Below, piece by piece: positions 50,470-51,823 of a DNA stretch of 64,000 nt. This DNA is from Candidatus Falkowbacteria bacterium. Lineage in GTDB: Bacteria; Patescibacteriota; Patescibacteriia; UBA11705; JABHMO01. Where the stretch lies: NCBI GenBank assembly GCA_018674305.1, contig JABHAL010000008.1, positions 954 to 64,953 on the forward strand. Direction: 5' to 3'. The notes under the pieces were generated by a model that saw nothing but the letters and a program-made list of their open reading frames with translations, had not been told where the DNA came from and searched no databases. How positions within the stretch are numbered: position 1 is the stretch's first letter; every line of letters begins with the position of its first letter. The position numbers and the translations under genes were made by a program.

Positions 50470-50706
50470 ATGAAGAAGTATTTTCTTCTCGTAATTCTGT
50501 TTGCTTTTGTGTCGATCACCATTAGCGGATGCTTTTCTCGCCCGTACTACGCGTACGATGATGGCCCGCGTTATCGGGAATCGTATGTTTGTGATGCGGA
50601 CTGTCGAAGCGAACGTCGCTGGCGTAGTCAGCAACGGAAAGCTCGTCAGCGGGAGTATCTCCGTTACAAGAGAGCAAGAAGCCAGGCTCGCAGATATCGC
50701 CGGTAG
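50470..50706 (+). CDS. small lipoprotein with Tyr/Arg-rich strongly basic tail
   Basis: MKKYFLLVILFAFVSITISGC lipobox, then RPYYAYDDGPRYRESYVCDADCRSERRWRSQQRKARQREYLRYKRARSQARRYRR. SD GGAGGA 7 nt upstream of ATG 50470. Confidence 0.5.
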   Translation: MKKYFLLVILFAFVSITISGCFSRPYYAYDDGPRYRESYVCDADCRSERRWRSQQRKARQREYLRYKRARSQARRYRR

Positions 50707-50726
50707 TAGAGGATCTTGTTTTGTCA

Positions 50727-50755
50727 AACTGATCCCTGTTCAACTGAACAGGGAT
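50727..50755 (+). terminator. hairpin terminator (GATCCCTGTTCA ACTG AACAGGGATC)
   Basis: Perfect 10-12 bp palindrome followed by TTGACTTTT. Confidence 0.5.
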
Positions 50756-50881
50756 CTTGACTTTTAAAAGAAAGGACAGAAGTGTTACTGGTTGACAGGT
50801 CTAAGCGTATGTGTTATTATGCGACGATACTGTGATATAATATAAATTAGTAAGTTGGACTTTTTTACATAGGAGGTTAGT

Positions 50882-51823
50882 ATGAGAAAGTTCGTATTTT
50901 TGACAATTGCATTGGCCATTTGTTTGGTTGGTGCTTCAGTTGCCCAGGCTCAGTATATTGAGGGTTGGGATCGTGACTCAACTGCTTCTGACTGGACAGT
51001 TGGAAGCGAAACTTATTTCAACTGCGATGAGTGCGGTTGCGCTGAAGACGACTATGAATGTCAGTACGACTGCGATCTGTGCTGGGATGAAGAGTTTGAT
51101 GAAAGTTCTGGTGATGTGGTAGAAGTTGATCCTGACTATTACTACTTTGATGAACCTCAAACTGTGGTTTCTCTGAGTTTTTGGCCGTTGGATTATGTTG
51201 GTCTGTCCTTTTACTACAATGGTTTTCCGTATTATTGGTATAACAACCACTACGTACGATACCATTCACATTGGTACAATGGCCATCGTTACTGGGTTCA
51301 TCCATGGTATTACAAACGATATCACACTTCCACATACCACAATCATCCTCGACATTGGCGAGCTCATCACAAGAAGCATTACACTAAAGGCAAAAAGTAC
51401 GCCAAGGGCAAAAAGTACGCCAAGGGCAAAAAGTACGCTAAGGGCAAAAAGTACGCTAAGGGAAAGTCGTACAAAGGCAAGAAGCTCTCCAAAGGAAAGT
51501 CGTACAAAAACAAGAAGTATGCCAAGAGTAAACGACAGCACAGTAATAAAAAGTGGCAAAACAAAGGTCACAAAAAGCGTGGTCGCAGTTCAACAAAGTT
51601 GAAGCGACAGCGAAGCAACAAAGGCAAGCGGAATTACAGCACGGGAAATCGTTCTCGTTCGCGCTCGTCTCGAGCCAATTCTTCGACTTACGGCAAGCGT
51701 AAGAGTAAGAGTAGGAATAAGAGTAAGTCGTATCGCTCCAGCTCGCGTGGTCGCTCTAGTCCAGTGCGCAGTTCTCGAGGTTCTCGTGGAACCAGAGGTT
51801 CGCGTAGTAAAAGGCGACGTTAG
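50882..51823 (+). CDS. secreted tripartite protein: acidic Cys-rich / Tyr-Trp-His-rich / protamine-like Lys-Arg-Ser tail with 4x KGKKYA tandem repeat
   Basis: Signal peptide MRKFVFLTIALAICLVGASVAQA. Acidic region DECGCAEDDYECQYDCDLCWDEEFDESSGD. Aromatic region YYWYNNHYVRYHSHWYNGHRYWVHPWYYKRYH. Then KGKKYAKGKKYAKGKKYAKGKKYA encoded by an 18-nt x4 repeat at 51393-51464. Then SR/RS-rich ...RSRSRSSRANSS...SRGSRGTRGSRSKRRR. SD AGGAGG upstream. Confidence 0.65.
   Translation: MRKFVFLTIALAICLVGASVAQAQYIEGWDRDSTASDWTVGSETYFNCDECGCAEDDYECQYDCDLCWDEEFDESSGDVVEVDPDYYYFDEPQTVVSLSFWPLDYVGLSFYYNGFPYYWYNNHYVRYHSHWYNGHRYWVHPWYYKRYHTSTYHNHPRHWRAHHKKHYTKGKKYAKGKKYAKGKKYAKGKKYAKGKSYKGKKLSKGKSYKNKKYAKSKRQHSNKKWQNKGHKKRGRSSTKLKRQRSNKGKRNYSTGNRSRSRSSRANSSTYGKRKSKSRNKSKSYRSSSRGRSSPVRSSRGSRGTRGSRSKRRR

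Follow-up and report, generated by a model that had tools for sequence, protein, structure and literature searches.

Two neighboring genes for predicted exported basic proteins

The window analyzed here, a 64-kb stretch (64,000 nt) of contig JABHAL010000008.1 from Candidatus Falkowbacteria bacterium, contains two adjacent genes for strongly basic proteins with export signals, referred to as A and B. The organism belongs to the Parcubacteria group of Patescibacteria, for which the name candidate phyla radiation (CPR) is in use as well. Gene A (50470-50706, plus strand) encodes a 78-aa lipoprotein precursor and gene B (50882-51823, plus strand) a 313-aa secreted protein precursor, both assigned from the open reading frame (ORF) and its sequence. 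As shown below, A and B are real genes under purifying selection.

Gene A is preceded by a ribosome-binding site (RBS; GGAGGA, 50460-50465). The encoded N-terminus is MKKYFLLVILFAFVSITISG, followed by the lipobox cysteine. As read from the sequence, the signal peptide spans residues 1-20 and carries a complete lipoprotein signature, namely MKK, YFLLVILFAFVSIT and the lipobox I-S-G-C with Cys21 encoded at 50530-50532. The mature part of 58 residues is rich in Arg and Tyr, has a net charge of +14, contains RRWRSQQRKARQREYLRYKRARSQARRYRR and ends with RRYRR. The whole protein has a pI of 10.5, with 17 Arg and 9 Tyr among its 78 residues. It was found as an exact copy on 19 contigs. Gene callers stumble on small basic lipoprotein genes of this kind, and several annotations show no gene at A. 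For one Joint Genome Institute (JGI) sample, a 60-aa ORF in an alternative frame (50585-50767, +2 frame) that crosses the terminator of A was called instead, and in the related locus L021 a 130-aa ORF on the opposite strand (3517-3909, minus strand) was called in place of the lipoprotein. Here and in the following, L-codes denote the related loci or lineages that were compared and P-codes denote protein matches.

Gene B is likewise preceded by an RBS (AGGAGG, 50871-50876). Mature B comprises 290 aa with a pI of 10.1 and a net charge of +46. Tyr, Lys and Ser account for 10%, 14% and 13% of the residues, respectively, and Cys residues are clustered. Exact copies of the 313-aa protein are encoded on at least 23 contigs, which come from independent samples and assemblers and include NCBI assembly GCA_018670895.1.

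Four parts can be distinguished in B. The signal peptide covers residues 1-23 (50882-50950, plus strand) and has the Sec/signal peptidase I pattern, MRK-FVFLTIALAICLVGASV-AQA followed by Q at the cleavage site. AlphaFold2 (AF2), run with the small family alignment, confidently predicted the signal helix (residues 2-20). The small residues at positions -3 and -1 and the Gln at +1 are kept in all six known members of the B family. A gene for signal peptidase I is found 4.4 kb downstream of the B stop codon.

The second part is an acidic, Cys-rich block (residues 24-87; 50951-51142, plus strand) with a net charge of about -21 and six Cys in [DE]C-x-C-type motifs. The overlapping stretch of residues 47-92 has a net charge of -19 and 6 Cys. 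The corresponding blocks of the homologs range from -9 to -21 in net charge and are poorly conserved in sequence. Each member has 4-10 Cys and 1-4 CxC motifs among acidic residues, which may bind metal in the manner of metallothioneins; no family match was found. Even Cys counts were considered as a sign of disulfide bonds and dropped, as the counts of 6, 7, 6, 10, 4 and 6 are not consistently even.

The third part is a conserved aromatic and His-rich core (residues 88-168; 51143-51385, plus strand) with the pattern YF-EP-TVV..WP..G...Y...P.(Y/F)WY...Y.RYH...Y....YWVH......HP..W. Residues 113-168 alone include 12 Tyr, 12 His and 5 Trp. Within the core, AF2 predicts with moderate confidence a five-strand beta-meander at residues 109-139 (51206-51298), with predicted local distance difference test (pLDDT) values of 70-76. 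From residue 150 on, no structure is predicted and pLDDT drops to about 40.

The fourth part is a polycationic tail of 145 aa (residues 169-313; 51386-51820, plus strand), defined by composition and predicted disorder. It has a net charge of +62, lacks Asp and Glu, contains 39 Lys, 29 Ser, 23 Arg and 16 Gly, includes the stretch ...SRGRSSPVRSSRGSRGTRGSRSKRRR and ends with SRSKRRR. The basic stretch as a whole begins at residue 146. Its 168 residues include no Asp or Glu, compared with 13% in the genes of the window (P = 5e-11), 67 Lys and Arg (P = 8e-20) and just five I/L/V/M/F/W. Among the other ORFs of the window, none has a basic stretch that comes near it. A C-terminal sorting signal (LPXTG, PEP-CTERM and relatives) was not found in B; there is no hydrophobic segment in the last 168 residues, and the terminal RRR is the sole resemblance.

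An initial annotation of this DNA had placed both ORFs at the positions given above, which were confirmed. Its description of A as a lipoprotein with an ISGC lipobox and a Tyr/Arg-rich mature part is borne out by the sequence and the pI, and all parts that it listed for B (Sec signal, acidic CxC block, aromatic/His block and K/R/S/G tail) are present. The composition that it called extreme is indeed far from chance by the P values above, and the disorder prediction that it had proposed as a check gave a disordered tail. The conserved folded core, the small family, the conserved cassette and the rapid evolution described below were not part of it. It had also named homologs without signal peptides as an observation that would speak against export; the signal peptides of all six B members leave that reading standing.

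Relatives of A and B

B belongs to a small and rare family. This is based on an exhaustive HMMER search, a profile search and two contig scans, which together covered about 15 billion proteins plus contig collections. A phmmer search against 1.84 billion cluster representatives gave five matches, three of which (P0001, P0002 and P0003) have the whole architecture of B. The profile search in a collection of 5.8 billion clusters returned P0001 and P0003 only. Two B loci were found in a scan of 185,579 species genomes and four in a scan of 241 million metagenome records. The ortholog in L025, the lineage closest to the window, was located through synteny. P0003 is a truncated, near-identical copy of the L006 protein, which leaves six distinct members: the window, L025, L005/L008, L006, P0001 and P0002. 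The homolog search proposed in the initial annotation yields a family that is confined to a small clade and unlike any known one.

The two remaining phmmer matches were rejected. P0004 (2701 aa), which aligned with 15 stretches of the tail, turned out to be an unrelated protein of K/T/D/Y repeats with a compositional match only, and P0005 reached an hhalign probability of 8%. A word-indexed search with full-length B returned nothing, not even B itself. Since the exact protein occurs on at least 23 contigs, this result is a method artefact of the low-complexity query and not evidence of absence, and it was not used to assess rarity.

All six members have a signal peptide, an acidic Cys-rich block, a 58-aa core, a basic tail free of acidic residues and an R-rich terminus. 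The core follows the pattern YF.EP...WP...G...Y...P.(Y/F)W(Y/H)...Y.RYH...Y....(Y/H)W(V/G)(H/I)..(Y/H)(W/Y)(R/K). Quantitative features were derived for five members (window, L005, L006, P0001 and, from its sequence, P0002); L025 was found later and has the same architecture. In these five, the 58-residue core has a net charge of 0 to +1, is composed of 43-50% Tyr, Trp, Phe and His and shares 23 invariant residues. The tails are 96-187 residues long with net charges of +36 to +67 and 9-17 His, and they end with SKRRR, GGRRR, GRGRR, GRRHR and RGRRR. In four lineages, the tails have 0-1 Asp or Glu per 96-187 residues (P <= 1e-6 each). A C-terminal alignment indicates a weakly conserved SYR..GR..P..RG.RG.RRR in the last ~30 residues, with G306 and R308 invariant.

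Neither A nor B matched a family in Pfam (E <= 1) or NCBIfam, and the five core sequences matched no Pfam family at E <= 10, including the YXWGXW and choline-binding repeats. Scans of A and B with PADLOC and PHROGs returned nothing that would link them to defense systems or phages. For B, there was also no match to PDB sequences or folds. A literature search on such proteins in Falkowbacteria or Patescibacteria found nothing relevant. Neither the B family nor its core or architecture has been described before; the general kind, i.e. exported bacterial proteins with low-complexity polycationic repeat tails, is already known.

The position of A is occupied by an A-like basic lipoprotein in seven lineages. 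A Cys-terminated lipobox-like motif (SGC, GGC or GSC) is present in 7 of 7 positional counterparts. All of them are rich in Tyr, Arg and His with a basic or Arg-rich C-terminus, and beyond the signal peptide and a Tyr-rich start they have little sequence in common. The arrangement of a Tyr-rich N-terminal part and a basic C-terminus is found at the same position in L001, L005, L006, L021 and L023, and in the window, L025 and L005 a Y-x-Y-D-D motif forms part of the start. The A-like protein of L001 contains four 17-residue repeats (51-nt period), and its tail (KKQPAKRGGKSTRRRRR) resembles the tail of the neighboring B protein (KKKPAKRGGKRGHRRGGRRHR). When the compositions of A and B tails were compared within lineages, the matched pairing ranked first of 24 permutations (0.545 vs a mean of 0.493), which is not significant.

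B itself is absent from L021 and L023. L021 has the lipoprotein only. In L023, a single lipoprotein combines a YYDDGP motif with an aromatic, beta-rich stretch and a basic tail, the last residues of which are GGRRR. This protein was considered as a 'hybrid' ancestor of A and B. It aligns with the B core in the right order, but the hhalign probability is just 7%, so that the idea stays a suggestion.

Evolutionary rates and tail remodeling

To quantify selection, the ratio of nonsynonymous to synonymous substitution rates (dN/dS) was estimated between the window and L025 according to Nei and Gojobori. The ratio is 0.12 for the whole of B, 0.08 for the acidic block, 0.07 for the core and 0.105 for the tail; A has 0.24, and the controls, the upstream membrane protein and Pth, have 0.077 and 0.081. 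These ratios are approximate because dS is saturated. In every segment, the proportion of nonsynonymous differences (pN) is far below that of synonymous differences (pS).

By sequence identity, A and B evolve faster than their neighbors, as is typical of surface proteins. They share 73-74% identity with their L025 orthologs (A 73%), compared with 86-88% for the neighboring proteins, and B retains about 30-33% in more distant lineages, where the neighbors retain 44-79%. For the tail, the alignments indicate that the positive charge and the absence of acidic residues are kept by selection while the sequence drifts.

The tail of B contains a tandem array of four 18-nt units, GGCAAAAAGTACGC[C/T]AAG, encoding GKKYAK four times (51389-51460, plus strand). 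Tandem Repeats Finder (TRF) reports 51389-51462 with 4.1 copies and 98% match. Units 1 and 2 end with GCCAAG and units 3 and 4 with GCTAAG, a synonymous difference. The initial annotation had described an exact 18-nt repeat in four copies; this holds for the peptide KGKKYA, which is repeated exactly, but not for the DNA, in which the units differ by this one C/T. It had also considered that the repeat tract might be an artefact, a doubt removed by the independent contigs with the exact protein, and it had anticipated slippage, in line with which assemblies with three units were found.

Among the loci fetched for this organism, four units are present in the window, L013, L014, L015 and L017 and three in L011 and L016. 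Both 3-unit loci are MEGAHIT assemblies from a single European Nucleotide Archive (ENA) series, and two short-k contigs end inside the array. L011 aligns with the window over 8,690 nt with zero mismatches and one 18-nt gap, corresponding to the loss of one GCC-type unit. The difference between four and three units is either a real slippage polymorphism or an assembler collapse. Across lineages, L005 has an 18-nt array encoding GKAKPK (4.6 copies) at the same tail position, and L025 has only a degenerate 12-aa pattern there. Judging from these arrays, the tails are remodeled by in-frame gain and loss of tandem repeats.

Transcription signals and a conserved upstream RNA

A and B look like separate transcription units according to the signals around them. 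Gene A is followed by an intrinsic terminator (50731-50756, plus strand) with an 11-bp stem (6 GC pairs), a 4-nt loop and a T-rich tail. A motif scan identified a sigma-70-like promoter of B (50792-50820, plus strand), TTGACA-17 nt-TATTAT with the TG of an extended -10 element, and B is followed by an intrinsic terminator (51832-51858, plus strand) with a 12-bp stem (7 GC pairs) and a 3-nt loop. The terminator of A is kept in L025, where compensatory T>G and A>C changes preserve the stem. The hexamers and spacing of the B promoter are kept as well, despite insertions of 19 and 52 nt in L025 between the A terminator and the B promoter, and the B ortholog is also trailed by an equivalent terminator.

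Upstream of A, an RNA-like element of ~140 nt (50184-50325, plus strand) was recognized by conservation and folding. A T-run marks its end, 144 nt upstream of A. Counterparts are found in L025 (1755-1894), L001 (9247-9382), L021 (3241-3362), L023 (6926-7066), L005 (7901-8041) and L006 (7114-7218). The closing helix of about 28 bp is paired in 96% of the alignment cells, compared with 35-46% in slid controls, and includes five pairs with compensatory changes; the minimum free energy z-score is -5.1. The many G-U pairs in the helix place the RNA on the plus strand. Its interior contains an invariant GUCCCCUCCU, which resembles the anti-Shine-Dalgarno sequence. No Rfam family matched at the gathering threshold or at E <= 1, and a riboswitch upstream of A was consequently dropped as a functional clue.

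The motif scan placed two near-consensus promoters before the RNA (50062-50090 and 50148-50175, plus strand), which are kept in all seven lineages. Apart from these two, a simple promoter scan found no consensus promoter directly upstream of A, so that A may be transcribed by read-through from the RNA promoters. The RNA directly precedes the A-like gene in the window, L025, L001, L021 and L023, and genes of other secreted proteins intervene in L005 and L006. In all cases, the next gene after the RNA encodes an exported protein on the same strand. The element may be a small RNA (sRNA) in its own right or the leader of the genes for secreted proteins that lie downstream, and its association with A is uncertain.

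Surrounding genes

The genomic neighborhood of A and B is conserved. Every lineage examined has the order TopA, FolC-like protein, DprA (minus strand), a membrane protein of ~225 aa (plus strand) and the conserved RNA, followed in some lineages by small secreted Cys proteins and then by the basic lipoprotein (plus strand), B (plus strand; see above for its absences), Pth, Der and LCP (all minus strand), LepB and HisS. In addition to TopA, Der, Pth and HisRS, the window encodes an LCP enzyme, signal peptidase I and proteins with a T4SS-pilin domain. Conserved neighbors include LCP (LytR-CpsA-Psr), a wall-glycopolymer ligase, signal peptidase I and a membrane protein labeled 'dolichol kinase'. 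These three fit an envelope context.

The membrane protein (49307-49978, plus strand) is multi-pass and conserved, with invariant GDPMARLIG..WK and E...WDNF.VP motifs. It is 100% identical to a Candidatus Falkowbacteria bacterium protein with locus tag HN643_03700, and the searches returned only about 10 relatives, each in a CPR-like context. The assignment as dolichol kinase is a JGI label alone and was rejected, as profile searches in Pfam, NCBIfam and PDB were negative. Between pth and der, a 132-aa ORF (52489-52887, minus strand) has no family match. It is present in the contigs of this species, and pth and der are adjacent in L025, L001, L005 and L006; the ORF appears to be a species-specific insertion.

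The small secreted Cys proteins share the C-terminal motif C..GG.(F/Y).G......LCD(L/M). In L005 (8243-9220) and L006 (7430-8459), their genes separate the A-like gene from the conserved RNA. In the window, the homolog (47179-47730, plus strand) is encoded beyond dprA and follows two membrane proteins that lack annotation (46241-47114). An octamer, TACGGATT, occurs seven times in the window (1.5 copies expected), always on the plus strand in intergenic regions and mostly in short tandem clusters, with sites at 7416-7442, 23184-23216 and 50354-50361 (plus strand); one copy is located between the conserved RNA and A. The L005 record (CAZPYM010000004.1) is titled 'uncultured Gammaproteobacteria bacterium' yet has the CPR gene order of the window. 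Its proteins are 56-79% identical to those of the window (TopA 79%, DprA 72%, LCP 71%), from which the record appears to be mis-binned or mislabeled.

Possible functions

To our knowledge, little is known apart from type IV pili about the means by which the ultra-small CPR/Patescibacteria cells attach to partners or surfaces, and the majority of their secreted proteins carry no annotation. By analogy with known basic surface proteins, the tails of A and B may be disordered polycationic electrostatic tethers for anionic material at the cell surface. We tentatively prefer this reading and regard it as a serious possibility, somewhat short of probable. In its favor are the export signals, the predicted disorder of the tail, the charge kept under selection, the constraint on both genes and their fast evolution, the repeat turnover in the tails, the A-like lipoprotein at the same position in seven lineages and the envelope-related neighbors. 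Extracellular location after export, binding partner and biological role are inferred here from the sequence features. A, as a membrane-anchored lipoprotein, and B, as a Sec-secreted protein, would both act outside the cytoplasm as disordered polycations. B would combine a small folded aromatic beta-meander core and an acidic Cys-rich N-terminal block with a flexible tail of ~145 residues and roughly 60 net positive charges. As the most economical mechanism, the tails would bind polyanions by multivalent electrostatics, for example the anionic wall glycopolymers of the cell itself and/or a partner cell's envelope. A would tie the bound material to the membrane, B would cross-link it as a surface 'glue' that is either soluble or associated with the wall, and the Tyr/Trp/His-rich core could add stacking or cation-pi contacts. 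Precedents exist in the literature: basic membrane-attached lipoproteins of Staphylococcus aureus bind the polyanion extracellular DNA (eDNA) and promote biofilm formation (PMC6593408), and the Lys-rich C-terminal repeats of the mycobacterial heparin-binding haemagglutinin (HBHA) bind sulfated glycans and mediate adhesion (PMC3293801). The target could be the own wall glycopolymers, a partner cell, DNA or mineral, among which sequence tools cannot discriminate.

Several points weigh against such a tether. The neighborhood is mostly housekeeping synteny, which makes the envelope context weak evidence. Export of ~60 net positive charges by Sec opposes the membrane potential and is unusual for bacteria. 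The absence of B from L021 and L023 makes it dispensable within the clade, and a family limited to a handful of lineages cannot be a general attachment mechanism of CPR. Localization, binding and expression of A and B are predictions. Finally, simple binding of polyanions requires neither the acidic Cys block nor the His-rich segments, both of which hint at a chemistry of metals or minerals.

The last point leads to the main rival. The R/S/G/K/H-rich tail and the acidic Cys block form a zwitterionic diblock that might bind negatively charged mineral surfaces or nucleate silica or metal sulfide on the cell, with CxC, Asp/Glu and His clusters chelating metal. Every member has the acidic Cys-rich block (4-10 Cys, [DE]CxC), 9-17 tail His and an R/S/G tail, and by analogy the acidic Cys block, the His stretches and the R/S/G end would fit silica- or metal-binding proteins at least as well as a tether. 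The zwitterionic C-terminus of Bacillus cereus CotB1 is indispensable for the spore coat's biosilicification, its 14-aa peptide SGRARAQRQSSRGR binds silica ionically with nM affinity, and silica is also bound or formed by poly-His and R/S/G/H-rich peptides (PMC11818168). The same K/S/G/Y/R make-up is found in the silaffin R5 peptide SSKKSGSYSGSKGSKRRIL. Yet B has no homology to CotB1 or silaffins and no RRIL/RRNL-type unit ends, silicification or encrustation is not known for Falkowbacteria, and any strong polycation binds silica in vitro, hence the compositional likeness says little. Overall, a mineral-related role seems unlikely, but deserves to be kept in mind.

Capture of eDNA for natural transformation or nucleotide scavenging, in which surface polycations would concentrate eDNA near the competence machinery, was the leading idea of the initial annotation and is rather unlikely. 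Polycations bind DNA, as do the basic lipoproteins of S. aureus (PMC6593408), and cultivated Saccharibacteria, also members of CPR, are reported to be naturally competent (PMC10187176). The initial annotation had pointed to the nearby dprA (47991-49082, minus strand), and DprA is indeed encoded 1.4 kb upstream of A in every lineage examined. The functional link drawn from this is not supported, as dprA lies on the opposite strand, with another gene and the RNA gene between it and A, and belongs to a long housekeeping gene order; moreover, L021 and L023 keep DprA without B. A tail of +60 would also be expected to hold DNA nearly irreversibly, a poor property for a hand-over receptor.

A membrane-active or antimicrobial effector is improbable. 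In this case, the tail would permeabilize anionic membranes or lipopolysaccharide (LPS) of a host or competitor, the anionic N-terminal block would act as a neutralizing pro-region of the defensin type, and A would be related or protective. The order of signal peptide, anionic block and cationic block matches the logic of cationic-peptide precursors, the Arg/Trp/Tyr-rich A resembles Arg-rich membrane-translocating peptides, and both proteins evolve fast. However, the charges are unbalanced (-21 vs +62), the tail with five hydrophobic residues among 168 is not amphipathic, and the locus belongs to a stable housekeeping region rather than to an island. Neither a processing site nor an immunity gene, a toxin domain or a linkage to a secretion system was found, with PADLOC and PHROGs negative.

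It is similarly improbable, but conceivable by analogy, that B is a cement made of a 'diblock' protein with self-complementary blocks. After export, the anionic, Cys-rich head and the polycationic Tyr/Lys/Arg/Ser tail would drive coacervation or the nucleation of a mineral, e.g. silica or metal sulfide, on the cell surface, and A would anchor the layer, fastening the ultra-small CPR cell to a partner cell or mineral grain, possibly under control of the upstream RNA. Such a cement would give marine bioadhesives and silaffins a counterpart in bacteria, built on a previously unknown fold.

Still less can be said for a cross-linked envelope or coat component in the manner of the Tyr/Lys/Ser-rich Bacillus spore-coat proteins CotC and CotG, in which Tyr, Lys and Cys would be joined by covalent bonds or disulfides to give a protective layer. 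The contents of Tyr, Lys and Ser and the clustered Cys of B resemble CotC/CotG-type proteins, and the strong promoter, RBS and terminator suggest high expression. No homology to coat proteins was found, however, and CPR bacteria are not known for spores or cysts. Genes for transglutaminase, laccase or peroxidase were not seen in the window, in which no systematic search was aimed at them.

The last alternative, chance or decaying low-complexity ORFs or a repeat assembly artefact, could draw on the disagreement of gene callers at A (60-aa alternative frame; opposite strand in L021) and the short-k contigs that break inside the array, but it is effectively refuted by the low pN relative to pS in every segment, by lipobox or signal peptide, core and basic C-terminus kept across lineages, by the conserved promoter, RBS and terminators with the compensatory change in a terminator stem, and by the occurrence of identical B copies in independent samples and assemblers (at least 23 contigs).

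The locus provides a concrete candidate pair of a membrane-anchored and a secreted polycation with a new aromatic core and a tail that changes its repeats. If A and B do act as electrostatic tethers, they would represent a simple attachment device specific to a clade related to Falkowbacteria and a natural source of very highly charged exportable peptides, with possible use as silica- or DNA-binding tags. If they do not, the tail is still a clean case of selection on charge, not sequence, in a bacterial exported disordered protein. In addition, the family raises the question of how ~60 net positive charges pass through Sec.

Comparison with known systems

The initial annotation had called the tails protamine-like and SR-like. 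These terms describe composition and do not extend to homology: B has a signal peptide and no Pfam match at E <= 1 to such families, and the likeness to SR proteins is confined to the RS/SR-rich composition of the last ~60 residues. The YXWGXW/WXXGXW repeats and the choline-binding CW_binding_1 repeats have a superficial likeness to the B core, which is predicted to consist of consecutive short Tyr/Trp beta-hairpins with Asn/Gly turns (WY-NN-HY, WY-NG-HRYWV).

The CotB1 peptide (SGRARAQRQSSRGR) and the silaffin R5 peptide (SSKKSGSYSGSKGSKRRIL) share with B (...SRGRSSPVRSSRGSRGTRGSRSKRRR) an R/S/G/K(/H/Y)-rich cationic C-terminus and a zwitterionic layout, a likeness in composition only. CotB1 differs from B as a spore-coat protein whose assembly involves no signal peptide. 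Silaffins, which stem from diatoms, are eukaryotic proteins with repeated K/S-rich units, extensive modification of Lys and Ser and processing at RRIL/RRNL sites, and no RRIL/RRNL motif is present in the B sequence.

Marine bioadhesives, such as mussel foot proteins and the cement of the sandcastle worm, are likewise secreted, disordered and built from short tandem repeats rich in Lys, Tyr, Gly and His. Cation-pi interactions and electrostatic coacervation are discussed for them. B goes beyond these proteins in pairing an anionic with a cationic block. The marine proteins, in turn, are eukaryotic and depend on 3,4-dihydroxyphenylalanine (DOPA) or phosphoserine, for which no enzymes were identified at this locus, and no homology was found.

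For A, a parallel is provided by the basic lipoproteins of S. aureus, e.g. SaeP, on an envelope of Gram-positive type. A is also a small and strongly basic lipoprotein. The S. aureus proteins were identified experimentally and A is known from its sequence; its mature part comprises 58 low-complexity Arg/Tyr residues, and no homology was found. Lipoproteins of the SaeP type bind eDNA and tie cells to the biofilm matrix (PMC6593408).

B can be compared with HBHA and related adhesins with Lys-rich repeats, although it matched no such adhesin in Pfam, NCBIfam or PDB. HBHA has a coiled-coil N-terminal domain, no classical signal peptide and Lys/Ala/Pro repeats of the penta- or heptapeptide type. 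B, by contrast, begins with a Sec signal peptide and an acidic Cys block, followed by an aromatic beta core and a much longer K/R/S/G/Y tail with GKKYAK hexapeptides. What the two have in common is a flexible C-terminal domain of short Lys-rich tandem repeats in variable number, on a protein that is surface-associated in the case of HBHA and predicted to be so in the case of B. In HBHA, number and type of the repeats vary between species, which was proposed to tune binding specificity (PMC3293801).

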